64,000 nucleotides of DNA from an uncultured Christensenella sp. (GCA_949287655.1 CASEHD010000009.1:96223-160222), one strand, 5' to 3'; positions 45,485-60,755 are shown, counted from the first letter of the stretch. A program made the numbers and translations. The notes: generated from the letters alone by a model not told the origin.

Positions 45485-45970
45485 TCAGACGAGAGTTATC
45501 GTCACGTCGAAACCGTTGTGTCGATAGGCTATGCTGTATATCTCAACCTTACCTTCGATATAATTGCCTTTAAGATGCGCGGTCGCCTCAACGTCGACGC
45601 CGAGGAGCGATTTAGCGTCGGCAAGCGCGCCTTCTATCTCAAACGCGCCGGTGACCTCTTCGTACGACTTTTCGACGTCGGACTTAAAGTCTGAAAGCGA
45701 CAGCTTTTTGCCGGCGTTTTCAGCCGCCCGGATATACGCCGAAGCGTCTATCTGCAGGTCCTTAAAATCGCTGCTGCCGACGCCGTCCTTATAAGTATAG
45801 ACGGTGACGTCGCCCTGTTTTACCGTAACGGCGAGGTTGTTCTGTTTCGCGCAGACGTCAAAGATCTGAGAGTATATCTCTTCTTCCGTATTGCAGGCGG
45901 TAAACGTCGCCGCCGTCAGCGTCACGACCGCAAGGATCGCGCAGATAAGAATAAGTTTTTTACTTTTCAT
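45485..45970 (-). CDS. Small lipoprotein (161 aa), third gene of the giant-protein operon
   Basis: Signal peptide plus lipobox TFTAC. GGAGG sits 8 nt upstream, inside the preceding gene, and there is an 11-nt overlap with that gene. It is a paralog of 60279-60755 (same length class and the same C-terminal ending: NGFDVTITLV vs NGYKIKITLA). Confidence 0.75.
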   Translation of the reverse strand: MKSKKLILICAILAVVTLTAATFTACNTEEEIYSQIFDVCAKQNNLAVTVKQGDVTVYTYKDGVGSSDFKDLQIDASAYIRAAENAGKKLSLSDFKSDVEKSYEEVTGAFEIEGALADAKSLLGVDVEATAHLKGNYIEGKVEIYSIAYRHNGFDVTITLV

Positions 45971-48900
45971 TGTTGCAACCTCCGTTACGCTTTTTGTTTC
46001 TGTGCGCGCCTATCGCGAGAGCGCCGACCGCAAGCGACAGCCCGCCGACGGACACCGATATCACCGCAGCCGCGAGCTTCTGATAGCCGGACAGCGCGGC
46101 GCCCGCGTTGAGCGCGGCGACGACGGTTTCCTCAGCCGAGCTCATAAGCGCGTCGTACTTGCTTTCGAGACCGCCTACGACGACCCCGTAAGTGTCGCTC
46201 TTTTCGCCCGTCGCGTTATCCTGCCAACCGAGTACCGCCGCGACCTCTTTCGCTTTTTCAAAGCTGACCTCCGCGTTCAGGTAATTTCTGCCGACGTATT
46301 CTTCGAGCACGTCGTAAGTTATCGTCGCGACGACTTCTTTTACATCGCTTTGATTGTAATTTTCTGTCTGCTTATAGCGCAGATATACGGTTATCTGTCC
46401 CGCGACGTCCGCGGATATTCTGCCGTCCGAAGAAAGCGCGGAGAAAGTCGCCTTGTCGAAAGAATACTCAACCGCGTCTCTTTCGTCGACGGTTATCTCG
46501 ATATATCCGTAACCCATACGCGCGGTCGCGGATATCTCTCTGTCCGCGCGGCCGACCGTTACGTCGACGACGACCGTTGCAGCGTCCTCGTAATTTTCAA
46601 GACCTTTGAGCACGAGACCGACATTGTAGGCGCCCGCGCCGAGGATCGTCTCTCCGCTGTAAACGCTGACCCTGCCGGCAAGCGCTTCATCGCCCGCGAC
46701 GAGTCCGCTCACCGTATAGACGACCGTATTCACGGGGTTGATTATGCTGCCGGTATATACGACCTTTTCGGCAGTCGCGTTGATGACGGGAGCCGCCGCC
46801 TTGCTTATCGTGAAAGTCGCGGCAGCGAGCGCGTTGACCTCGTAATTGCCGTTTCCGACGACCTCTGCCGCCCTGACGTAATAATTGCCGGCGTTGACCG
46901 GAGCGACCCGGGAATAATTCCTGCCGTCTGTCGAATATTCGAACGCAACGCTTATAACGTCGTCGCCGACCAGATTGTCCCAGTCCGCCGCCGCGCCGTC
47001 GTAAGCCGCGCCGTCGTAAGTCTTGTCGTCCGCGGCGATCGTGCCGCTCAGAACGCGTTTGACGACGTTTAAATTTGCGGTAAGAGGCTCTCCGCCGTTG
47101 ACCGCGTAGTTCGCCGCGTTGTCGAGCGTATACTCTACCGTCACGGCTATCGCCGTACCAGCGCCAGTCTCGCCCGCGGCGTATTCTTCGGAATATTCAT
47201 AGCCGGTCACCGCGAATTTATCGCTGCCGACCATACCTTCCGCCCTTATGAAATAGACCTCGTTGCCGCCGAGCGGATCGCCGTAGACGACGGAGTTGTC
47301 TTTAAGAGTTACCGTAACGGGAGCCTTTGCGATATTCACGGTTATTTCAGCCTGTTCCGCGTCCTCGTAATTTTCAAGTCCGCTCAACGTTGCGGTGACG
47401 GTATAGTCGCCGGCGTTCAGCAGTTTTGCAAGACAGAGAGTCTGGACATGCGCCGCCAGGCTTTCGTCGCCCGCGAACAAGCCTTCTACCGTAACGGTCA
47501 CGACGTCTGCGACCGTCTTTTCCCTGCCGTCGTAGACGAGCCCGTCCTTAACGGTCAGCACTATAACGGGAGCCTCCGCCTTTACGATATTGAACTGCAC
47601 GCCGCCAGCGATCTCGCCCATAGCGTAGTTGGGGTTGTCGACAGATGTGACTTTGACGTAATAAGAGCCCGCGTCTATCGGCGCGTTGTTTACGTAACTC
47701 ACGCCGTCCAAAGAGTACTGAACGGTACAGTTGACGACGTCGCCTTCCAGTATGCCTTCGCTGTCTATATACGCGTTGTCATACGGCATTCCGTCGTAAA
47801 CCGCTTCCGGCGCGACGACTGAGCCGTCTATCGTCCTCTTGTCCACGGTGAGTTTCGCCGCTACCGCTTCGCCGTTATTGATAAGATAGTTGTCCGCGTT
47901 TCCGGTCGTGAACGTAAAGTACAGAACGACGTCTACAACGCTTCCCGCCGCCGTCTTTACGACGTAATCGGTCGTATATTCAGCCGTCACCGCGTCCTCT
48001 CCGACCAGTCCGTTCACCGCGGTGTAGAAGTCGGTCGCGGCGTAAGTCAGTTCATTGCCGTAAGTCACGTTTTTATCCGCAGTAACCACTCTTACGACAG
48101 CTTTGTCGACGACGACCTCTTTGCCGACGATGACGACGTCGTTGTAGTTCGCCGGATTGTCAACGCTGAAATTGATCGCGGTGACGATCACTTTGCCGCC
48201 CGCGTCGACAGCCGCCTCGGTATATGTCTCTCCGCTTTCGGTCAAAGTCACTGAGTCGAAATCATACGCGTCGTAAACGCCGCTGACAACGGGATCGGTA
48301 ACGGACTTTTCGCCCGCCGCGCTTACCGCGCTTTCACCGTACGCTATCTTTACGTCGACGCCCGAAAAATCCACCTTCGGGGTCGCCTTTTCAACGCAGT
48401 ATTCGCCTGTGCCCGCCGCAGAGTCGACTATCTCGTAATTCGCGTTTGCAGAAGTCGCGACCACCTTGTAGTAGCCCGCGTTCTTTATCTCAGTCACAGC
48501 CTCGAACGTGCCGTCGGCGGTCGCGCTGTAAGTTATCGCATAAGTTTTTTCGAACGTATCCGCAGTCGTCAGTCCGAAAGAAGTTTTCGCTTCGCCGTCG
48601 TAGACCTTATTCTGCAAAGCCGCCCAGCTCGCGTTGGAGTTTTCGCCTGTGATATAAATCTTCTGCGTGACGACTTTCACCTCAAATTCGACGCTCGCCT
48701 CTTCGTAACGCTGGCTCTTCAAAGTCGCGGTCACCGTGTAATTCGTCTCGCCGACGTCGAGCGCGCTTGCTATCTCAACGCCGCCCACCGAGAATACGAA
48801 ATAATCGGTCTCTTCTTTGACTTCCGCTTTATAATCCACCGCCGCGAGAAGCGCGTTCGCCAGCTTTTCAGCCGTGTTCAGGTATTCCGTCGTAAACACG

Positions 48901-51395
48901 CCGTCGACCACCTTGTCGGTCGTTATCACTTCGACAACCGCGGTCACGGTAAATGTGTAAACGTCCGTTTTAAGCTCGTAGTTCGCGTTGTCGAACGTTA
49001 CTTTCACATAGTATCTGTCCGACTCCGTCGGCATACTTTCCGACCATTCGGTCGCGTCTGCGCTCTTCGCGTAACCGTAAATAAACGTAAGCTCGTCGGG
49101 AAGCTGCGTTTCAGGCATAAACTGCGCCGTCTCGCCGTCCGCCACTTCGATCGTCGTGAACTTGTCCTTGACCAGCGCGCCGGCGATCCGATATTTCGCT
49201 ATGACAGCCGTTGCGGCGCCGGTAGCGATCTCGTAGTTCGCCTCGTTGCCGTTCATCAGGACGTTTGCTATGCCGAGGGTGACCTCTGTGCCCGCCGCGG
49301 TCTTTTCGGTATATCCGGTTATTTCATAGCCTGTAAACGCGTCGGGAGCCTGCACGTTCTCGCCGACCGCAACGCCGCCGACCGCAACTATGCCGACGGG
49401 GTTGTTGTTCTTTACCGTATCGAGGCTGTCGCCGTAAGTGATATTGCCCGCGCCGTCGAACGCTATTTCGAGCGCGAGTTTAGCGATGCTTATCTCTATT
49501 TTCGCGCCGTCCTTTACGTTCATCTTATATATCGCGCCGTTTGCGCTGTCGACGAGGTAGTTGCCCTCCGCGTTGGTCAGTTGCACTTCGGTAAGTCCGG
49601 CGCCCGCGTAAAGACCCTTGTTGAGAGTGAATTCGTATTCGCCCGCCGCGCCGCTGTTGGCTTTTTCGCCGCTGAACACGTTTATGCCGCCCGTCTTGTC
49701 GCCCGCGACCGTCTTAACGCTTATATCTTTGAGATTGTTCACGCCGTCGTAAGTCTTTGAATACGAATATGTGTTGGTGTCTTCCGCATAGGTAAAGCCT
49801 TCCGCAATGTCCGCGCTGCCCATCGTCATAAAGTTGAGCGTATACAGCGTGCCGTAATCCTGCTGATTGCCGGACGAAGTAAACTCAACGTTGGCGAACA
49901 TATCCATCGTAAGATATACGCTGCCCGTCTGAGACTCGTCCGCGACTATCGTATACTCTTCGACGTCGTAGACGTTTTTATCCCTGTCCGTCACCGAATA
50001 AAGCGCGCTTTCGCCTTCCTTCCATACGACGGACTGCTGCGCGGGAATTACCAGTTTACCGCCGCTGACGTACACGGGCGCGGAAATATCGTAAACGATA
50101 CCGCCGTTGTACGTCTCGTTGTCGCCCATGACCCATACGTCGTGTTGCGTGCTGGTGGAAGCGTAGTAAACGTTTTCGATAGTCGTCAACGAAGTATCCG
50201 ATCCGTTTTTTCCGATTAGGGCACCGAAGTTATCATCGTTTGTACCCATATTTTTGCTTTTTATAACACCTGTAAACGAGTAGTTAAGTCCGTCAATATT
50301 CACCGATACCGATCTATCTCCGCTTGGCGATTGAACTTCACCTATTATTCCGCCTGCGTAGCCTGTATTGGGTCTGCCTTTGCTTACGACCCAACTTCCG
50401 ACTGTTACGTTTGCCGAATAATTTTCGTTAAAGTTATATATCTTGCCTGCACCTTCAAGATTGATATTTGTCATCGTAAGTTTTCCGTTGTTTACTCTGC
50501 CGACAAAACCTCCGAGAATGTAATATCTTTCATTGCCGTCTTTTGCTCTCCAACCGCTTATGCCGAAGCCGCCGACAGTCGTCGCGGAAAGATTTTCGTT
50601 GCCCGCGTTCGCGTTGACGGAGACCGTCGTCTCGTCTATCGTCGTATTGCCCGCGATATCGCCGACAACGCCGCCGAGCATCAGATAATTGGGAGCGCCC
50701 GAATTTCTTGAAGTATAGTCGTAAAGATAGTTGGTGTTTTTCTTGTTTGCGTCGGCGGTGCCGTAAGCCTCGTTGGAAGCCCAGTTAAGATCTACGCGCA
50801 CGTTCTCTATCTTTGCGTTATTGGTCGCCTGACCCGCGATAATACCTGCCAGAGCGCCGACCTGATCCGCGCCTATCGTATACTTGGATACGACAATTTT
50901 AACGTTCTTGACCGTGCCGCCGTCTATCGCTTTGAACAGACCGCCGACGATCTGCTCGGTGCCGCCGCTTGTCGTAAGTGTGCCTTCGACGCTTATCTTG
51001 ATCGTATGTCCGTTGCCGTCCAGAATACCTTTCAGCGCGGTCACGGTATCGTAACTGCTGACGGTGATATCCTCGTCCAGGTAGTAATACATATTCGTAT
51101 TGTCTTTGCCCGGAATATAACTGTTCCAGCCTGTCTGCGTTATCTTCTGCGCGGTATATCCTTCCGGCACGTTGGCGGTCGGGTCGTAATCCGAAGCGAC
51201 GCTTCCGTTGGCGACGTAGCCTTCGTCCACGGCTATTTCAGCCGCATATACGGTCTGCGCGCCGCCGCCCGCAACGATATTTTCAACCGTTTCGCCCAGG
51301 ATAAATGTCAGCGCGACCGCTACCATAAGGAGCAGTGCGGTGACTACCGCCGCGATATTATATCTTTTTCTTGTCATCTTCTCGCCTCCTCTCAT
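45960..51395 (-). CDS. 1,811-aa surface repeat protein: N-terminal TM, GLUG-like region, ~12 MBG/YDG-type repeats, C-terminal TM plus basic tail
   Basis: N-terminal TM is IAAVVTALLLMVAVALTFILG. GLUG-like motifs include GGLFKAIDGGTVKNVKI, LGGVVGDIAGNTTI, GGFVGRVNNGKLT and AGGIIGEV. Repeats of about 80 aa carry the signature K.YDG...NAG.Y.V......NY......F.I.KA. The C-terminus is LAAAVISVSVGGLSLAVGALAIGAHRNKKRNGG, and there is no LPXTG. Confidence 0.8.
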   Translation of the reverse strand: MRGGEKMTRKRYNIAAVVTALLLMVAVALTFILGETVENIVAGGGAQTVYAAEIAVDEGYVANGSVASDYDPTANVPEGYTAQKITQTGWNSYIPGKDNTNMYYYLDEDITVSSYDTVTALKGILDGNGHTIKISVEGTLTTSGGTEQIVGGLFKAIDGGTVKNVKIVVSKYTIGADQVGALAGIIAGQATNNAKIENVRVDLNWASNEAYGTADANKKNTNYLYDYTSRNSGAPNYLMLGGVVGDIAGNTTIDETTVSVNANAGNENLSATTVGGFGISGWRAKDGNERYYILGGFVGRVNNGKLTMTNINLEGAGKIYNFNENYSANVTVGSWVVSKGRPNTGYAGGIIGEVQSPSGDRSVSVNIDGLNYSFTGVIKSKNMGTNDDNFGALIGKNGSDTSLTTIENVYYASTSTQHDVWVMGDNETYNGGIVYDISAPVYVSGGKLVIPAQQSVVWKEGESALYSVTDRDKNVYDVEEYTIVADESQTGSVYLTMDMFANVEFTSSGNQQDYGTLYTLNFMTMGSADIAEGFTYAEDTNTYSYSKTYDGVNNLKDISVKTVAGDKTGGINVFSGEKANSGAAGEYEFTLNKGLYAGAGLTEVQLTNAEGNYLVDSANGAIYKMNVKDGAKIEISIAKLALEIAFDGAGNITYGDSLDTVKNNNPVGIVAVGGVAVGENVQAPDAFTGYEITGYTEKTAAGTEVTLGIANVLMNGNEANYEIATGAATAVIAKYRIAGALVKDKFTTIEVADGETAQFMPETQLPDELTFIYGYAKSADATEWSESMPTESDRYYVKVTFDNANYELKTDVYTFTVTAVVEVITTDKVVDGVFTTEYLNTAEKLANALLAAVDYKAEVKEETDYFVFSVGGVEIASALDVGETNYTVTATLKSQRYEEASVEFEVKVVTQKIYITGENSNASWAALQNKVYDGEAKTSFGLTTADTFEKTYAITYSATADGTFEAVTEIKNAGYYKVVATSANANYEIVDSAAGTGEYCVEKATPKVDFSGVDVKIAYGESAVSAAGEKSVTDPVVSGVYDAYDFDSVTLTESGETYTEAAVDAGGKVIVTAINFSVDNPANYNDVVIVGKEVVVDKAVVRVVTADKNVTYGNELTYAATDFYTAVNGLVGEDAVTAEYTTDYVVKTAAGSVVDVVLYFTFTTGNADNYLINNGEAVAAKLTVDKRTIDGSVVAPEAVYDGMPYDNAYIDSEGILEGDVVNCTVQYSLDGVSYVNNAPIDAGSYYVKVTSVDNPNYAMGEIAGGVQFNIVKAEAPVIVLTVKDGLVYDGREKTVADVVTVTVEGLFAGDESLAAHVQTLCLAKLLNAGDYTVTATLSGLENYEDAEQAEITVNIAKAPVTVTLKDNSVVYGDPLGGNEVYFIRAEGMVGSDKFAVTGYEYSEEYAAGETGAGTAIAVTVEYTLDNAANYAVNGGEPLTANLNVVKRVLSGTIAADDKTYDGAAYDGAAADWDNLVGDDVISVAFEYSTDGRNYSRVAPVNAGNYYVRAAEVVGNGNYEVNALAAATFTISKAAAPVINATAEKVVYTGSIINPVNTVVYTVSGLVAGDEALAGRVSVYSGETILGAGAYNVGLVLKGLENYEDAATVVVDVTVGRADREISATARMGYGYIEITVDERDAVEYSFDKATFSALSSDGRISADVAGQITVYLRYKQTENYNQSDVKEVVATITYDVLEEYVGRNYLNAEVSFEKAKEVAAVLGWQDNATGEKSDTYGVVVGGLESKYDALMSSAEETVVAALNAGAALSGYQKLAAAVISVSVGGLSLAVGALAIGAHRNKKRNGGCNNEK

Positions 51396-54300
51396 TCGCC
51401 GTCTGCCGGGGTATCTTCACCGGAAGGTACGTCCGGCTCAGGCTCTTCGGGCTGAATTTCGTTTACTTTGCTCATATATACGGTAACTTCGACCGACTGA
51501 ACTTTGCCCGCCGCGTCCGTAACCGATATCTTTACCGTAAACGCCGTCGCGCCCTGCTCCTGCGCCGTCGTGCCGAGCGAGCCGTCGTAATATACGGTCT
51601 CTTCGCCCGGGGTCAGCGCGGAAAAGTCGAGCGCCGCTTCGAGAGAAGCGGTCTCGCCTCCCTCGAATACAGCTGTCAGGGTCGCGGTAGCAGTCGGAGC
51701 GGATACCGCTTCGTAAGAAACGCCGTTTATCTCAACCGTCACAGTGCCCGCCGTCTCGTCGTAAGCCGCGTAATACTCGCCCGTTATCCCGCTGAAACCG
51801 GTCAGCTTTTTCGCCGTCACGGTCACGGGTACGATCACGCTGTAAGTCTTGCCGTTGTATACGAAACTTGCCGCCGCGAGATATTCGCCGCCTGTCGCGG
51901 AAAAATCCACTCCGCTCAGATTCCAGCCGGTCACGGTGACGTTAAAGCTCGTATTGCCGCTGCCGACGGTGATCTCCGTCGGGAACTGAGCCGCGCCGCC
52001 CTCGCCGTACGGGTCGACGGTCACGCCGCCGCCTACGTATTCAAGCGAGCCGCCGATTTTGACCGTCATAGCCTGTCTCTGATAGAACGCCGCGTTCAGC
52101 GCCGCGTCGTCGGAATATCCGATCTCAGCGTATACGGTCACATCGTAATTGCTTGCGTCGAATGTGAGCGTTTCAAAGTTGAGCGCGTAGCCGTTCCTGT
52201 CCGTCCAGCGTATCGGGAGCGCGAGCACGTAGCCGTTGGTGAACCTGACCCACGCCGTGGTCGGGAACAGCGCCGCCTTTTCTTCCGCGGTCATATTATT
52301 GAACGCGAGCGCGTCGATACTTATCGTATTCCTTCTCAGCGCCCTGTCGAAATAGACGCCCTCTATAACATTGCTCTGCACGTCAATGCTCACCGTCTTT
52401 GTCCAGGTGAAGTATTCCGAGCCTGCGAGAGTCGCGGTCGCCCCGCATGTGCCGGACGTGTTGTAAGTCATCGTCGTGAAATCGAATTCCGTGGCGAATT
52501 TGACCTTTACCTCTTCCGACCACTCCTTTCCGTCGTAAACGTAATTAGCGTCCACGTTTGTCGGCCACGGCGAGAAGGTCGAGCCTTCCGTCGCGGTCAG
52601 TGCGTACAGATAATAGTCATACGGATTGACGACAACCGTGTCTTCCTTTCCGTCAATCGTAAGAGAAGTCACTTCTTTGTTTTTTATACGCACGGTAAGT
52701 TCGAGAGTCTGTTCAAGGTTGCCCTTGCCGACGGTCGCCACCGCGGTGAATTCCATACCCGACAGGTCGTTCTCCGTCCTTTGAGCAAACGTCTGCAATA
52801 CCTCCGCGTCGACCGACCAGCTTTCAACGTCAATCGCGCCGTACATTCCGTCCGGATAGGAGAAGAACAGCTGAGCCGGCAACTGACTCATTATGTCGAG
52901 CGCACTGTCGAACGCGTACAGGTCGAGTTCGTATACCCCGCTCTCACCGTCGCTTCCGAGCGCGGTTATCGTGCTGTCGAGATATTCGACGTCGAGCGCG
53001 GCTTCAGCGCCGTTTCTGAACGTTACTGCCGCCTGATACGTTCCGCCGTCTATCGTCGGCGACGGCATCGTCAGGTTCTTTATCGCGGACATCTCCACTC
53101 TGCGCGAGGTCATATTTTTGAAATACACCGTTATCGACGACGGAGCGCTGTCGTATGCGTGGAGCGACACCGTATCTATAAGAGCGGGCTCAAGGTTGGG
53201 ATATACCGTTATCGTGAATTCTCTTTCCCTCGTCACCCCGTTGGGGAATGTCGCGACCGCCTTTCCTTTCAGAACGGTCTCTTCAAAGTTGTCGTTGTTT
53301 GCGTAATTCAGAAGTCCGAGCGAAGTCGTGCCGAGGACGATCTTGTCGCCGTAGCTTTGCGCGTCCTCGTTCCACATATAGAAGCTGACTTCCGCCTTCA
53401 TTACCGTCGTGCCCTGTTGGTAGACCGCGATCTTGTCCGTAAAGTAGTTTTCTATAAATTCGTAGTCGCTTGTCACCGCGTCGTTTTCATAAGCGAGCGG
53501 TTCAAAGAACATATCGAATTGCATATTGCCCCAGTTCACGACGCCCGCCGTACCGCTGCCGTCAACCGTGTTGTCCGGGTCGCCGACCGACGAGAAGCAA
53601 TCGTACAGGTTTATCTCAGTCTTATAGGTATTGCTGCGCTGGTTGGCGTTGTACACCTGATCGTTGGAAACGATATTCGTTTCTGTGGACACGCAGTATT
53701 TTCCGTGGTATTCCAGCACCTCGCCGTCCGCATTTGTGACCGCCTGGTTGTAATCGTAACCCTGAATATAGATGTTGGTCAGCGTGCCGTCCACAAGATT
53801 GAGTCCCGCGTTTACCTCGTTGTATACGGGGAGCGGCAATATAGCCTTGACGATATCGTACACTATGCCGTTGAGCAGGTCTCCTATTGCGCCGTCCAGC
53901 GCACCCGCGACGATACCGCCCACGCCGTCCACTTTATTTTCTATCAACGTCTTGACGATCTGTTTGAGTTCGTTGCTGAGCGTCGACCAGAACGCGTTGT
54001 AGTTGGTCCTGTCCCAGTTCACGTATTTCAGATAGTGCGCGCCGAACATGTCGGGAGCGAGCTTACTGAGGTCTATCTGCGATTCCGCACCGAACACAAG
54101 GTTTCCCATGAGATCGTCGATCAGTTTGTTGAACGTGTAAGAATCAAAGTTGATATTGACGTTCAACGTGCCCGTTGAGCGCATGCTGATATCTATGCCG
54201 CCGCTCAACAGTGCGTTGATATCGAGATTGTCGAAGATATCGGTCTCTATCTTAAGTCCGCCTTCCTCTGCGGTCGTTTCGTCTTCTGCCGCGGCAATCT

Positions 54301-57300
54301 CCGGCACTTCGACTTCAACGCCGTCCTCTGTAAACACGAGAGAGTCGATTATGCTCTGCATTGCGCCGGAAAGCGTGCCGACTATATCCATCTGGAATTC
54401 GAGCATACTGCCTACTATGCTCGCGAGATCTATTGTGAACAGAACATTTACGGTAAACTTGCCGGGCACGAGAATTATCTTCATATTCTTTCCCGTGCCG
54501 TCCGCGCCTAACGCGTCGTCCGAATAGTCGAGCGTGATGTGCAGAAGCGCGTCATCCGCATAATTGGTCGTCGTGTTGTTGAATCTGTCCTCGCTGCTGA
54601 TAAGGTACAACGATATCACCAGGGTCTCCGCCGCAACGCTGTCGCTCGTGCCGTCGAGCGTGAAGTTGCTCTCGCCTTCGACCACGTTCTTTATTCTTAC
54701 GCGCAGATAGCTGTTTCCGCCGCTTTCTACGCTGTTGTTGAGGATATCCAGATTAAAGTCCATATTCAGGCATTTAAGCAGGCTTCTCGTCATCGCCTCG
54801 CCGTCGGTCGCGTCGAGGACTTTTCCCGAATCGCTGGTCACGGTAAAGCTTTCGGCAGGCTTGAGCGCAAGTTCCGCCGTCAGGTTGAAGGTATCGTTTA
54901 CGGATACCGGCAGTTTTATCGTGCCGCCGTCAATGTCTATCTCTCCTTCTTTGACCTCTATATTAACGCCGAGGGTCGTGCCCAGAAGCGCGGTGAAGAT
55001 CGTATCGAAAGTGGACGCCGCGATATTCGCTTTTATCACACCGTCGTATATAGAGATATCGCCGAGGACAGCCGCAAGTATCGCTTTTGTATCCGTACCG
55101 TCCCCTGTCGTCGTTTCGTCCGAAGCCGCGCCGCCGTCGCCCGTCTCCGCAGTCTTGCCCGCGCCCGTTATCAGGTCTGTCAGAAGCGCGCCGAGATCGG
55201 TATCTCTGAGTATGCCGACCTTCTCGTCCAGCATCGTGAACAGACTGGTCGCGAGCTCGCTGTTTTCGACCTTGAATTCAAACAGTCCCATTCCTTCGAG
55301 GTCTACGAAAAGATCTCCTTCCTGTATGCCCAGGGAAAGTATTTTCTTCTGCTCATATCTGAGTTCAAGATATATCTTTGTGTCGTACGGGCTGTCGAGA
55401 TGTATATCCCATTTAAGGTCTAGATACAGCTTCGCGTCGTTCTTGTCGAGAACAAGGTTTATCGGGAAGCCGATATAGCTGCCCTCTTTCGCTAAGATAT
55501 TGTTTAACATCGACGCGATATCTATCGTGTCTTTTTCGTTGGCTATCTGCAGCGTCATGCCAGCCTGCATTGAGTTGGCAAGGTCGAACACGACGTCGTA
55601 CAGCGATTCTTCCGCATCGGCAGCCTTTTCCTTTCCGCGGGCGACCGCCGCAGCGAGGTTGACCGTCGAGCCTATCGAGATCGGATAGCTTTCGGTGCCC
55701 GTTTCAAGAGACAGCGAATAGTCTCCGTATTCTGTCGGAAGCGCCGCGCCGCCGTCGCCGTATACCGTCTTTTTTGGCAGAGTTCCCGAAAGATCGAGAG
55801 TTACGCCCTTCGTGCCGAGCGATACGTCCGCGGTAAGGTCGAGGACGTCCGCGCTTATGCCGGTATCCACGTTCAGCTCTTCGAGAAGTTTAATAAGCGC
55901 CGCGAAAGTTACGCTCGCGGTTATCTTGTCCGCGCTGAGTCCGACAAGCACTGCGCCCGCCTCTGTAAGCTCCGTGCCGCCCGCGGTGCCGTCGCTTTCG
56001 GTCATTATCAGGCTTTCAGCTTCGGACGAGCCGCCGATGAGTCCGCTTAAATCGAATGCAAGGTCTAAGTCCGTCAGATTTTCTCCGTTTATCTTTATAC
56101 CCCCGATAAGATCGAGTACTATATTCGCAAAGTCGAATTCGAACTTATAAACGGGCAGCGTCAGGTACTGAGTCTTTATGCCGCTGAGGTCGAGAAGCAC
56201 CGTCGGAACGCCGTTTTCGTAATAGCCGTAAACGCCGATAATGATATCCCCGCCCGTCTTTTTCAGTTCGAGCGCGAGAGTGCTGTTTTCAGGCTTTTCC
56301 CTGTCGATCGAGAACGCCGCGAGAAGGTCTATGCCGACCTCGTATCTGTCGCCGTCCGCGTTATTCGCGGAAAGACCCAGCGTCGGGTTGTCGCCGCCGG
56401 TATCGATGCCGAATCCCGCCAGCAGCTTCCCTATCGCGTACTCTGCAGCCTCAACGCCGAGCGTACCGTTTGCGTTGACTTCTACGCCTGCAAGCGCGGA
56501 ATATATGAGGTCGCCGAGGTTGGACGTATAGTCGCCGTCCGTGCGCTCAGCGATATAATCGGAAAGGTCCTGCAATGTGCCTTCGAGGAAGCCGACGCGG
56601 AAATCGTGCGCTCTCAAAGTCGCGTTCAGCGGATCGTTCTCGTCGCCGAGGTCGACGGTCGCGACTATGTCGTTCAAGCCGTATTCCGCAAAGTTGACAG
56701 AAAGGCTCATATTGCTGAGACCCGCCGGCAGAGTTATCTTGTTCTCCTCGCCGAGGAAGCCGTTTATCACGTCAAAGAACTTCTGATCGACTTCGACGAT
56801 AAGGCTGTCGCCTTCCTCGTCCACGTAAACGTTTTCCTGCAGACCGATAACGCCGACCACCGCGGAGATAAGACCGCTTATCGTCGGGTTTATGATCGCC
56901 TTTACTTCGCCGCCGTCATCGCTCAACGTCGCTTCGAGCATATTGCCCGAAGAGAGCGACAGCGCCTTAGCTTCGTCAAAATCGGTGCCGAGCGCCTCGT
57001 CTATCGCCTTCGTTACAAGATTCACGAGGTCGCCTATCAGCGCGTCGAGGCTTGCTTCTATCTTTATATTCTTTGCGTTCCAGTAATCGGGTATGAGGTC
57101 GGATAGAGAAATATAGAACGCCCCGTCTCTGTAATAGATACCCAGAGCCGGCGTATCGCCCGTCGGCTGACCGTCCGCGCCGAGCACGTACAGATCGAGG
57201 GCGATAAGGTTGTTGTCCGCCGAAGATCCGGCGTAATTGAGGTCGAGGTCTACCCTCGCGGAAAGTCTGAACCCGAACTCTCCTTCGATTATCAGAGTGT

Positions 57301-58723
57301 TTTCGGGCACAGGCACGTCGTCTGTGAACAGACCTATCAGCTTTGCGACGTCCAGTCCGTTTTCGGGCGCGTCCAGCGTAAGGTCGATATCAAACGCGAG
57401 GTTTGTAAAGGAAAATTCGCGCGAATTGCCTTCAAGGTCTGTCGGCATATCAATATATATCGGATAGTCGTAGTATCCGATCTTCGTGCTCTTCCAGTTG
57501 AGCAGCTCGTCTCCCTCCGACCCTGCCGCATTGTCGCTGACGCTGGTCGTAATGCCTGTGATCACCCCGTTTTCGCAGTCTGCCTGCAAGTACATCCTGA
57601 CCTGCGGCACGGCGGAATTCAGCCAGTTGAACAGCGAGCTGAGATCAAGATCTATGCCGATGAGATCCCCCAGGTCGAACATGTCGAGCAGGCTCTTTAA
57701 ACCGGTTATCATACTGTTGACCTTGACTTCGAAAAGCAGGCTTTCGCCGACCAGCTCTCCTGTCGAGACCCTTACCGTCTTCGTATACAGAGGGGTGTTG
57801 AATATGAGTCCTATCAGGGTGCCGTATATGTCGATATTCCCCGCGAGCCCGTTGAGCAGCTCTTCGATGTCTATCTCCGCTCCCGCCTCTGCAAGAATCG
57901 CGGCAAGATATTCCGCCTTAAGATCGCTGAGGTGCACGTACGCCTCGCCGTCGCCGAAATCGAGATAGACCTCTCCGTTCACCGCATAGATCGCAAAAGC
58001 GACGCTCTCGTCGTCCTGCATGGATATCCTGAACATCATCTGCGTGCTCTTGCCCTCATCGAGGTTGATCTGCAGCTGTACGCGAGCGGCGCCGTTTGTC
58101 GTCGTCAGCAGGCTGTCGTAATCTATCGCCACGCCGTTCATTGAATCGAAGTAACCCATGAGCTTTTCGATCGCGCTCTTTGCCGTGAGATCATACCCCG
58201 TCGTCTGTTCGTATTCTGCCGTGCCCGCGTCCGCAGTCCACTTGGCGTACAGAGTCGCGTCCTTTGTCGGCGTGTACGGGAAAGTCACCTGCGCGCCCGT
58301 AAGCCTGGGGCTGGTGTACCAACCGGCGAATACGAAACCGTCGCGGTAGGTGCGCGGCGAAGTTTCGATCACGTCGGTGACCGCGTCCTCTATCTCGCTG
58401 CCGCCGTTCACGGCGAAACTCACGGTATAGAGTCTGGTCCATTTTGAATACAGCGTGACGTCAGACGTCAACGTCATCGGGAAAGCAGCCTCTGCGGTAA
58501 ACTCGGGATCGAGATACCAGCCTTCGAAACGGTACCCGCTCCGTTCGGGAGCTTCGGGCGCCGTCGCCACTATCGTCTGATCGCTTATCGCAGTCGCGGT
58601 CTCGTCGCCGTTATCGAGAGTTAGCGTAAAAGACGCCACCTTCTCGTCACAAGCGGCAAAGACAAAGACCAGCGACAACACTAACGCGAGCAGCGCGGCA
58701 GTCAGCATTACCTTCTTTCTCAT
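51392..58723 (-). CDS. 2,443-aa giant lipoprotein: two InlB B-repeats, ~1,500-aa uncharacterised core, C-terminal Ig-like repeats
   Basis: AAGGAGG RBS and a signal peptide plus lipobox VFAAC. Two Flg_new/InlB B-repeats cover residues about 31-163 (RSGYRFEGWYLDPEFT...LYSKW; YTVSFAVNGGSEI...DGFVFAGWYTSP...LYAKW). The C-terminal third has repeated modules with W-centred motifs (IDVESWSVDAEVL, LPIRWTDRNGYA, VTVTGWNLSGVDF). The ATGA overlap links it to the next gene. Confidence 0.8.
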   Translation of the reverse strand: MRKKVMLTAALLALVLSLVFVFAACDEKVASFTLTLDNGDETATAISDQTIVATAPEAPERSGYRFEGWYLDPEFTAEAAFPMTLTSDVTLYSKWTRLYTVSFAVNGGSEIEDAVTDVIETSPRTYRDGFVFAGWYTSPRLTGAQVTFPYTPTKDATLYAKWTADAGTAEYEQTTGYDLTAKSAIEKLMGYFDSMNGVAIDYDSLLTTTNGAARVQLQINLDEGKSTQMMFRISMQDDESVAFAIYAVNGEVYLDFGDGEAYVHLSDLKAEYLAAILAEAGAEIDIEELLNGLAGNIDIYGTLIGLIFNTPLYTKTVRVSTGELVGESLLFEVKVNSMITGLKSLLDMFDLGDLIGIDLDLSSLFNWLNSAVPQVRMYLQADCENGVITGITTSVSDNAAGSEGDELLNWKSTKIGYYDYPIYIDMPTDLEGNSREFSFTNLAFDIDLTLDAPENGLDVAKLIGLFTDDVPVPENTLIIEGEFGFRLSARVDLDLNYAGSSADNNLIALDLYVLGADGQPTGDTPALGIYYRDGAFYISLSDLIPDYWNAKNIKIEASLDALIGDLVNLVTKAIDEALGTDFDEAKALSLSSGNMLEATLSDDGGEVKAIINPTISGLISAVVGVIGLQENVYVDEEGDSLIVEVDQKFFDVINGFLGEENKITLPAGLSNMSLSVNFAEYGLNDIVATVDLGDENDPLNATLRAHDFRVGFLEGTLQDLSDYIAERTDGDYTSNLGDLIYSALAGVEVNANGTLGVEAAEYAIGKLLAGFGIDTGGDNPTLGLSANNADGDRYEVGIDLLAAFSIDREKPENSTLALELKKTGGDIIIGVYGYYENGVPTVLLDLSGIKTQYLTLPVYKFEFDFANIVLDLIGGIKINGENLTDLDLAFDLSGLIGGSSEAESLIMTESDGTAGGTELTEAGAVLVGLSADKITASVTFAALIKLLEELNVDTGISADVLDLTADVSLGTKGVTLDLSGTLPKKTVYGDGGAALPTEYGDYSLSLETGTESYPISIGSTVNLAAAVARGKEKAADAEESLYDVVFDLANSMQAGMTLQIANEKDTIDIASMLNNILAKEGSYIGFPINLVLDKNDAKLYLDLKWDIHLDSPYDTKIYLELRYEQKKILSLGIQEGDLFVDLEGMGLFEFKVENSELATSLFTMLDEKVGILRDTDLGALLTDLITGAGKTAETGDGGAASDETTTGDGTDTKAILAAVLGDISIYDGVIKANIAASTFDTIFTALLGTTLGVNIEVKEGEIDIDGGTIKLPVSVNDTFNLTAELALKPAESFTVTSDSGKVLDATDGEAMTRSLLKCLNMDFNLDILNNSVESGGNSYLRVRIKNVVEGESNFTLDGTSDSVAAETLVISLYLISSEDRFNNTTTNYADDALLHITLDYSDDALGADGTGKNMKIILVPGKFTVNVLFTIDLASIVGSMLEFQMDIVGTLSGAMQSIIDSLVFTEDGVEVEVPEIAAAEDETTAEEGGLKIETDIFDNLDINALLSGGIDISMRSTGTLNVNINFDSYTFNKLIDDLMGNLVFGAESQIDLSKLAPDMFGAHYLKYVNWDRTNYNAFWSTLSNELKQIVKTLIENKVDGVGGIVAGALDGAIGDLLNGIVYDIVKAILPLPVYNEVNAGLNLVDGTLTNIYIQGYDYNQAVTNADGEVLEYHGKYCVSTETNIVSNDQVYNANQRSNTYKTEINLYDCFSSVGDPDNTVDGSGTAGVVNWGNMQFDMFFEPLAYENDAVTSDYEFIENYFTDKIAVYQQGTTVMKAEVSFYMWNEDAQSYGDKIVLGTTSLGLLNYANNDNFEETVLKGKAVATFPNGVTREREFTITVYPNLEPALIDTVSLHAYDSAPSSITVYFKNMTSRRVEMSAIKNLTMPSPTIDGGTYQAAVTFRNGAEAALDVEYLDSTITALGSDGESGVYELDLYAFDSALDIMSQLPAQLFFSYPDGMYGAIDVESWSVDAEVLQTFAQRTENDLSGMEFTAVATVGKGNLEQTLELTVRIKNKEVTSLTIDGKEDTVVVNPYDYYLYALTATEGSTFSPWPTNVDANYVYDGKEWSEEVKVKFATEFDFTTMTYNTSGTCGATATLAGSEYFTWTKTVSIDVQSNVIEGVYFDRALRRNTISIDALAFNNMTAEEKAALFPTTAWVRFTNGYVLALPIRWTDRNGYALNFETLTFDASNYDVTVYAEIGYSDDAALNAAFYQRQAMTVKIGGSLEYVGGGVTVDPYGEGGAAQFPTEITVGSGNTSFNVTVTGWNLSGVDFSATGGEYLAAASFVYNGKTYSVIVPVTVTAKKLTGFSGITGEYYAAYDETAGTVTVEINGVSYEAVSAPTATATLTAVFEGGETASLEAALDFSALTPGEETVYYDGSLGTTAQEQGATAFTVKISVTDAAGKVQSVEVTVYMSKVNEIQPEEPEPDVPSGEDTPADGE

Positions 58724-60278: not shown

Positions 60279-60755
60279 TTACGCCAGCGTGATCTTTATC
60301 TTGTAACCGTTTTCGTCGGTATAGGTTATCACGTACGACGCGACCTCTTTTGCCAGTGTATCGGCTTCGAGGACGACCGTCGCGCCGTCAAGCCCGAGTG
60401 AGCCGGTATTCTGCAGCTCTGCACTCAGCGAGACCTTGCCGCTCGACTCGTCCTTTTCGCAAACGTACCCCTCTTTAAGATTGTCGACGGTAAACGCGTA
60501 CGCCTCTCCTTTCGCGCCGACCACGTTCTCGAATTTTACGCCCAGACCGTAAAGGTCGGTCGTCTTGCCGTTGTCGTAGACATAGAACGTGCCGCCGTTA
60601 TCCGACACCTCGACTTTGAGATAATCTTTGCCCGCAGCGAGCTTAAACGCGTCGTTTATCTGCCGATCCTCTTTCGTTACGCAAGCCGAGGCGCACAGCG
60701 CGACCGTTAACGCTATTGCGACGATCGCCGCGATGATGAGTTTACTTTTTTTCAT
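60279..60755 (-). CDS. Small lipoprotein (158 aa), paralog of 45485-45970
   Basis: Signal peptide with Cys-containing lipobox region ALCASAC. It has the same overlapping junction with the upstream repeat protein (…NEKK-stop overlapping ATGAAAAAAAGTAAA) and the same C-terminal ending. Confidence 0.75.
   Translation of the reverse strand: MKKSKLIIAAIVAIALTVALCASACVTKEDRQINDAFKLAAGKDYLKVEVSDNGGTFYVYDNGKTTDLYGLGVKFENVVGAKGEAYAFTVDNLKEGYVCEKDESSGKVSLSAELQNTGSLGLDGATVVLEADTLAKEVASYVITYTDENGYKIKITLA

Follow-up and report, generated by a model that had tools for sequence, protein, structure and literature searches.

The stretch of DNA considered here, referred to as the window, comprises 64,000 nucleotides (nt) from an uncultured Christensenella sp. 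(GCA_949287655.1 CASEHD010000009.1:96223-160222) and carries on its minus strand the gene of a giant predicted lipoprotein of 2,443 amino acids (aa), P0001. The original prediction, made for a core of about 1,500 residues in this protein, was that it belongs to no recognised family, repeats a degenerate motif at intervals of roughly 250-300 aa and may form an extended stalk with a new repetitive fold. The core contains four diverged tandem copies of a module of about 300 residues, designated units D1 to D4. The reading cautiously favoured here is that these copies likely adopt a β-clam fold of the LolA/RseB type and together form a stalk close to the membrane in a surface protein. The gene, its N-terminal elements, the four units and their motif hairpins are located as follows.

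51392..58723, minus strand: gene of the giant lipoprotein P0001 (2,443 aa), a single open reading frame (ORF) that encloses the whole core under study
58649..58723, minus strand: signal peptide and lipobox (…VFVFAAC25), with conserved Cys25
58229..58636, minus strand: two Listeria-Bacteroides repeats (Flg_new, PF09479), residues ~30-165 (Pfam expectation value (E) 1.1e-19; also NCBIfam and PDB sequence)
57329..58201, minus strand: unit D1, residues 175-465 (AlphaFold model; hhalign; MAFFT of excised units)
57920..57991, minus strand: D1 motif hairpin IYAVNGEVYLDFGDGEAYVHLSDL, residues 245-268, unit strands 4-5 (hhalign, AlphaFold model)
56429..57328, minus strand: unit D2, residues 466-765 (hhalign against D3 83%, E 9e-6; AlphaFold model)
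57083..57142, minus strand: D2 motif hairpin GIYYRDGAFYISLSDLIPDY, residues 528-547 (hhalign, family conservation)
55529..56428, minus strand: unit D3, residues 766-1065 (hhalign against D4 96.9%, E 1.8e-10; AlphaFold model)
56165..56239, minus strand: D3 motif hairpin IGVYGYYENGVPTVLLDLSGIKTQY, residues 829-853 (hhalign)
54629..55528, minus strand: unit D4, residues 1066-1365 (hhalign slices and self-alignment; AlphaFold model)
55274..55339, minus strand: D4 motif hairpin LSLGIQEGDLFVDLEGMGLFEF, residues 1129-1150 (hhalign)

The ATG of P0001 is preceded at 7 nt by AGGAGG, and the encoded N-terminus (MRKKVMLTAALLALVLSLVFVFAAC25) ends in a lipobox Cys that is retained in at least 90% of 42 homologues. 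With both a signal peptide and a lipobox Cys, the features by which bacterial lipoproteins are recognised, the product is a predicted lipoprotein. The two repeats that follow are matched by Flg_new in two stretches (70.7 bits against a cut-off of 27) and by the NCBIfam model List_Bact_rpt (TIGR02543; 48 bits against a cut-off of 20.95, residues ~30-165 only). They make up 6% of P0001 and are present in most members of its family.

Beyond these repeats a scan of P0001 against Pfam and NCBIfam returned nothing. When the protein was searched as seven fragments at E<=10, residues 170-1760 matched zero Pfam families, including any family of the LolA clan, and queries of PDB sequences using P0001, a core profile of 1,160 positions or a generalised profile of the unit gave either the InlB B-repeat or no match. 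The cores of distant family members likewise lack a Pfam domain, and the family is not described anywhere in the literature that our searches found. The core is thus without a recognised family, as had been proposed, with Pfam, NCBIfam and PDB sequence matches confined to the N-terminal repeats. Its composition (L 12.7%, G 9.7%, D 9.5%, A 8.4%, I 7.5%, T 7.4%) is rich in D, L, G, T and I as claimed; the accompanying statement that it contains no Cys does not hold, since three are found in residues 170-1700.

The evidence for the repeat comes from comparisons of profiles. The four motif strings singled out in the original prediction lie at residues 245-268, 528-547, 829-853 and 1129-1150, that is, at spacings of 283, 301 and 300 residues. 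Family alignments were made from 42 sequences and, as a cleaner set, from 24 sequences built from in-frame locus fragments. Aligned to itself with hhalign, the 24-sequence profile matches at a shift of one period over 659 columns (probability 96%, E 2e-9, score 91) and again over 442 columns (95%, E 4e-8, score 80), and a weaker shift of two periods is also present. The reversed profile served as control and reached a best score of 30.5; block-shuffling is unsuitable here, as identical 8-column blocks match themselves. Slices of a family alignment agree with the self-alignment: residues 461-760 align with 761-1060 in register over their full length (83%, E 9e-6), 761-1060 align with 1061-1360 (96.9%, E 1.8e-10), and the slices 170-460 and 1361-1700 align with their neighbours weakly yet in register. 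hhalign also superposes the four motif instances together with the strand pair that precedes them (ARVQLQINL… / ARVDLDLNY… / VGIDLLAAFSI… / AKLYLDLKWDI…), and in a MAFFT alignment of 45 excised units the four instances share columns. In the D2 hairpin, G528, Y530, Y531 and Y537 are nearly invariant across the family. The repeat and its period of about 300 residues are established by these comparisons, and the recurrence at roughly 250-300 aa, together with the internal periodicity that had been anticipated, is borne out. The motif itself is a loose theme, its literal form Y-x-x-G-x-x-Y-[ILV]-D-[LF] having zero matches in P0001.

The demonstrable array consists of four units at residues ~175-1365, about 1,200 of the approximately 1,500 residues that had been claimed; hhalign relates neither 1210-1500 nor 1501-1760 significantly to the units. 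The array is not uniform, D1 being the most diverged copy. One could argue that there is no true repeat and that the motif is a by-product of a D/L/G/I-rich composition in a β-rich protein, for blastp of P0001 against itself finds no off-diagonal match, the repeat being seen by profiles alone, and pairwise identity between units is merely 10-24%. Profile alignments of 440-660 columns at three times the score of the reversed control are not expected on this account, nor is the alignment of the same four motif instances by two methods. In addition, the same profile segment is amplified in tandem in relatives: in P0075 (4,265 aa) and P0077 (4,300 aa) the segment from positions ~430/520 to 680/790 occurs eight times in tandem, and P0072 (7,116 aa) contains eleven profile matches. 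An origin in composition is therefore hardly tenable and, for practical purposes, already refuted.

The family to which P0001 belongs is small. A word-indexed search recovered 42 clusters of 2,300-3,400 aa, none of them named, and an exhaustive search of 1.84 billion representatives with a hidden Markov model (HMM) recovered 81 proteins at E<=1e-3. Relatives of 4,265-7,116 aa contain 9-11 separate HMM matches per protein, so that the number of copies in a family member ranges from about 4 to over 10, and stand-alone homologues of the unit of 165-525 aa were not found with the generalised unit profile. The 81 clusters fall almost wholly within one family of the Christensenellales, and the named relatives are all Christensenellaceae or metagenome-assembled genomes of Christensenellales, including Candidatus Ornithoclostridium. 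Among 201 genomes sampled from the order, 8 of the 9 from the window's own family were positive. In one other family, four genomes (G068, G145, G168 and G187) have ORFs of 7,905-11,640 aa that match a single unit weakly (E 5e-12 to 3e-7, profile positions ~900-1100), and all remaining families in the sample gave zero matches. The module is in this way restricted to a single lineage, and the suggestion that it might define a family limited to certain Clostridia was correct. The very large genes of the four genomes just mentioned may contain a distant version of the module. The genome from which the window derives (1.94 Mb) has three loci of the family; the two further paralogues, of 2,794 and 3,381 aa, are located at C12:50500-68500 (L047) and C25:1-12500 (L048).

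The structure of the array was predicted with AlphaFold2 for residues 170-1360, covering the four units, from the 42-sequence alignment. The same order of elements recurs four times in the model: a helix is followed by six strands, of which strands 4-5 form the motif hairpin; next is a long helix, such as 559-579, which a loop of low confidence, acidic or rich in Gly, separates from a second helix; and finally two strands, a helix and three or four further strands. D1 also has an N-terminal helix, six strands, a helix/disordered lid and more strands. Secondary structure is hence consistent with the phase of the repeat, and the helix-like stretches that had been noted after two of the motifs, at residues 559-579 and 1158-1170, are indeed helical in the model. 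According to PMC6363788, the LolA fold is an antiparallel sheet of eleven strands divided into two sub-sheets (1-6 and 7-11); the segment joining strands 6 and 7 forms a lid that packs on the concave face. The order of six strands, lid and five or six strands in the units matches that description; a LolA-type fold is probable, not proven.

Comparison of the four-unit model with the PDB by Foldseek points to the same superfamily. Of the top 50 matches, 17 are to LolA, LolB, RseB, MucB or LprF, with Foldseek probabilities of 0.80-1.00 and E-values of 8.5e-5 to 2e-2, and the remaining matches have probabilities of 0.66 or lower. The alignments to the LolA-type chains exceed the length of the targets by ~75-90 columns, which fits the presence of an extra inserted lid in the units.

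The phase in which the units are cut bears on how the models are interpreted. Boundaries placed at the loops of low predicted local distance difference test score (pLDDT), such as 608-892, were tried and abandoned, as the phase that starts after Flg_new aligns in register. When residues 600-900 (301 residues) were modelled alone, the piece obtained a pLDDT of 75.5 and a predicted template modelling score (pTM) of 0.53. The evidence suggests that this piece is out of phase and joins the second sheet of D2 to the first sheet of D3. First, the initial unit must start at the end of Flg_new (~175), the phase that also brings slices into register; second, counting from ~175 places the loops after strand 6 and before strand 7, where LolA has its lid; and third, residues 710-760 have a pLDDT of 60-90 in the four-unit model against 49-69 in the piece, from which the first half of D2 is absent, while its other residues keep their pLDDT. 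On these grounds we think that the low-confidence loops lie within units and not between them.

A number of observations weigh against the reading of the array as a stalk of LolA-type modules. The four-unit model is of moderate quality (mean pLDDT 69, pTM 0.50), the LolA-type matches are geometrically weak (target-normalised template modelling score (TM) 0.30-0.48, root-mean-square deviation 10-20 Å), and the Foldseek output does not say which unit gave them. The 600-900 model has no neighbour in the PDB (best E 0.11, TM <0.2). No link in sequence to the LolA clan was detected, with zero Pfam matches at E<=10 and none for the unit profile against PDB sequences. The best match of the four-unit model in BFVD is not LolA-like; it is an uncharacterised 927-aa protein, A0A0A0YVG6, of Erwinia phage phiEa2809 (E 4.7e-9, probability 0.77, TM 0.06-0.07). 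D1 is linked to the other units solely through weak, though in-register, hhalign matches (D4 21%, D2 16%), and the function is deduced from architecture alone. With tblastn, the core matched none of 50,697 phage records. Kinship with DUF4367 was considered and rejected, hhalign of the units against 14 DUF4367 proteins from the same order giving probabilities of 0.2% or lower. The family LolA_like (PF17131) is nearly absent from Christensenellales.

It is possible, though doubtful, that the unit has a fold of its own, an elongated two-sheet α/β structure whose matches to LolA reflect generic curved antiparallel sheets and helices. The lack of a PDB neighbour for the 600-900 piece despite its pLDDT would agree with this, as would TM values below 0.5 for the LolA-type matches, the missing sequence or profile link to any LolA-clan family, and a best BFVD match to an uncharacterised, multi-module phage protein. 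Chance similarity between sheets would not be expected to draw all 17 of the top-50 matches with probabilities of at least 0.8 from one superfamily, and the order of six strands, lid and five or six strands is found in all four units; moreover, if the phase is 466-765 / 766-1065, the piece that lacked a neighbour spans two half-domains. The module does recur and has no described counterpart in sequence. The proposed new repetitive fold, though conceivable, is not upheld as stated: the high-probability Foldseek neighbours all belong to LolA, LolB, RseB or LprF and their kin, evidence that is itself moderate.

The part of P0001 beyond the array comprises two further regions.

53384..54628, minus strand: residues 1366-1780, non-repetitive, without Pfam match (conservation in family alignment)
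51464..53383, minus strand: ~7 modules of ~85 residues, residues ~1781-2420 (hhalign self-comparison 95%, offsets 76 and 172)

The best conserved stretch of the family, block 1501-1550, lies in the first of these regions, in which W1570, R1572, W1579, P1630, P1632, G1646, T1647 and N1650 are nearly invariant, and which is probably the functional distal part of the protein. Its first ~300 residues may represent a degenerate fifth unit: a motif-like string, KNMKIILVPGKFTVNV, near residue 1418 is aligned by the generalised unit profile at the position expected for such a unit. The expected alignment for a fifth unit in residues 1366-1700 scores 21, the same as the reversed control. The periodicity of ~85 residues in the C-terminal modules is real. 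These modules are presumably immunoglobulin (Ig)-like; Big_4 (PF07532) matches them at E 0.0015 with 18.5 bits, under its cut-off of 22.1.

Two genes follow P0001 on the same strand.

45960..51395, minus strand: partner gene lying downstream and tightly coupled to P0001; its product of 1,811 aa begins and ends with a hydrophobic segment
45485..45970, minus strand: small lipoprotein gene, 161 aa, with an 11-nt overlap with the end of the partner gene

The start of the partner lies within 20 nt of the P0001 stop. As listed, it forms an ATGA overlap with that stop; an ATG at 51377, 18 nt downstream of the listed start, has GAGGAGG 7 nt before it and is likely where translation begins. The pair of giant lipoprotein and partner is conserved, recurring in relatives and at a paralogous locus. 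At the C12 paralogue a 2,076-aa ORF begins 2 nt later and is followed by an ORF of at least 785 aa, and the partners of relatives are weakly but collinearly similar in their N-terminal 500 residues. The N-terminal ~450 residues of the partner contain recurring segments of the type 'DGNGHTIKI … GGLFKAIDGGTVKNVKI … GGVVG', which a distant relative's partner also retains (23% identity over 572 residues). We take these segments to resemble GLUG/β-helix repeats; Pfam gave no match for them. The small lipoproteins at 45485-45970 and 60279-60755, both on the minus strand, are paralogues (29% identity, E 4e-4). Each sits at the end of a giant-protein locus, neither has a Pfam match, and HMM comparison found them unrelated to the core. 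They hold a '…VxVxxGxxTxYxYxxG…' stretch that recalls the hairpin of the units.

The type of cell limits what a LolA-type module could do in this organism. No homologue of Omp85/BamA was found in the genome, which is 96% complete, by a search whose control was positive in seven diderm genomes. The cell is thus taken to be a monoderm, in which a LolA-type module can have no part in sorting lipoproteins to an outer membrane. Cultured Christensenella reportedly stain Gram-negative.

From these observations a putative architecture can be outlined. Internal duplication would have produced the array of ~300-residue α/β modules, with copy number differing among relatives. At the start of each unit there would be an N-terminal helix, followed by a first sheet of six strands in which strands 4-5 form the '…GIY..G..Y[VI]DL…' hairpin; a helix - acidic disordered loop - helix connection would take the place of the LolA lid and lead into a second sheet of five to six strands. 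The N-terminal lipid would hold the protein in the membrane, with the two Flg_new domains and then the four large modules above it. The conserved unique region 1366-1780 and the ~7 Ig-like modules would be distal and displayed through and beyond the wall. The stalk may act in a surface complex with the co-transcribed, membrane-anchored 1,811-aa partner and the small lipoprotein. The array itself would be a modular stalk that spans the wall, a reasonable inference from the architecture; such a spacer role fits units that vary in number and share little identity, and a distal region that is better conserved than they are.

A more active role for the array can also be envisaged, in which it is not a passive spacer and the units form a chain of hydrophobic pockets that hold lipids, glycolipids, lipoprotein acyl chains or hydrophobic molecules of the host or pass them across the wall, much as LprG and LppX act in mycobacteria. 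The probable LolA-type fold, the predicted lipid anchor of the protein and the conservation of hairpin and sheet positions across orthologues are compatible with this idea. Many members of the LolA fold bind lipids, but not all of them do, and the fold has non-lipid roles as well (PMC6363788). Identity of 10-24% between units and a copy number ranging from about 4 to over 10 would sit better with spacers or the stalks of adhesins; conservation in the protein is highest outside the array, and neither a cavity nor a ligand is in evidence. The pocket chain is accordingly judged unlikely. Very unlikely is the related idea that the array could be a membrane-anchored LolA-fold 'bridge' in a wall-enclosed monoderm that has neither an outer membrane nor a Lol system, relaying lipids, glycolipids or lipoprotein anchors outward or capturing host lipids or bile-derived molecules.

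The module matters beyond this gene. Christensenellaceae are prominent gut commensals, mostly uncultured, and a genome of 1.94 Mb spends three loci on a family whose core no database model describes. With a defined period, and with a phase and a fold that are probable, the module provides the basis for a new domain family of ~80 protein clusters, some of them with 4,000-7,000 residues. If the LolA-type fold is true, P0001 presents a long tandem array of that fold in a surface protein, to our knowledge the first such case, and the question of ligand binding is raised; should that fold not be borne out, the module has a new one.

Among known systems, the closest likeness is to the LolA/LolB/RseB (MucB)/LprG-LppX-LprF superfamily (CATH 2.50.20; Pfam clan LolA_LolB), whose fold is probably common to the units. 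The features that would be shared are an N-terminal helix, an antiparallel sheet in which strands 1-6 and 7-11 make up the two parts, and a lid connecting strand 6 to strand 7. In proteins of this superfamily, strands 4-5 form a hairpin of the type 'sheet strand - D/N-G turn - aromatic strand'. LprG, LppX and LprF resemble P0001 in being lipid-anchored, LprG and LppX being lipoprotein-anchored LolA-fold carriers of mycobacteria. The units differ from the superfamily in having no detectable sequence or profile similarity to it, in their length (~300 residues against ~180-200, owing to the helix-disordered-helix insertion), in their occurrence as 4 to more than 10 tandem copies in proteins of 2,400-7,100 aa, and in their host, a monoderm without Omp85 and hence with no Lol pathway to serve. 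Surface proteins with Listeria-Bacteroides repeats (for example the InlB B-repeat) are represented by two bona fide copies at residues ~30-165, but these cover 6% of P0001 and are uninformative on the core. The bridge-like lipid-transfer proteins AsmA/TamB/YhdP and VPS13 share with P0001, by analogy only, long arrays of β-sheet modules with interspersed helices or loops in a protein of the envelope. Their period and order of elements are unlike those of the units; no β-groove of the AsmA/TamB/YhdP/VPS13 type occurs among the top 50 PDB neighbours, and Pfam gave no AsmA or DUF490 match. Giant modular adhesins of Gram-positive bacteria are comparable in their great length, tandem modules, variable copy number and surface anchor, and in their C-terminal Ig-like repeats of ~85 residues. 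In P0001, however, the predicted anchor is an N-terminal lipid and not LPXTG, the main repeat is a 300-residue α/β module and not an Ig or all-β domain, and members of the family always occur together with a second giant protein anchored in the membrane. Set against these systems, the module is an undescribed building block of one bacterial lineage and not a new kind of biology.

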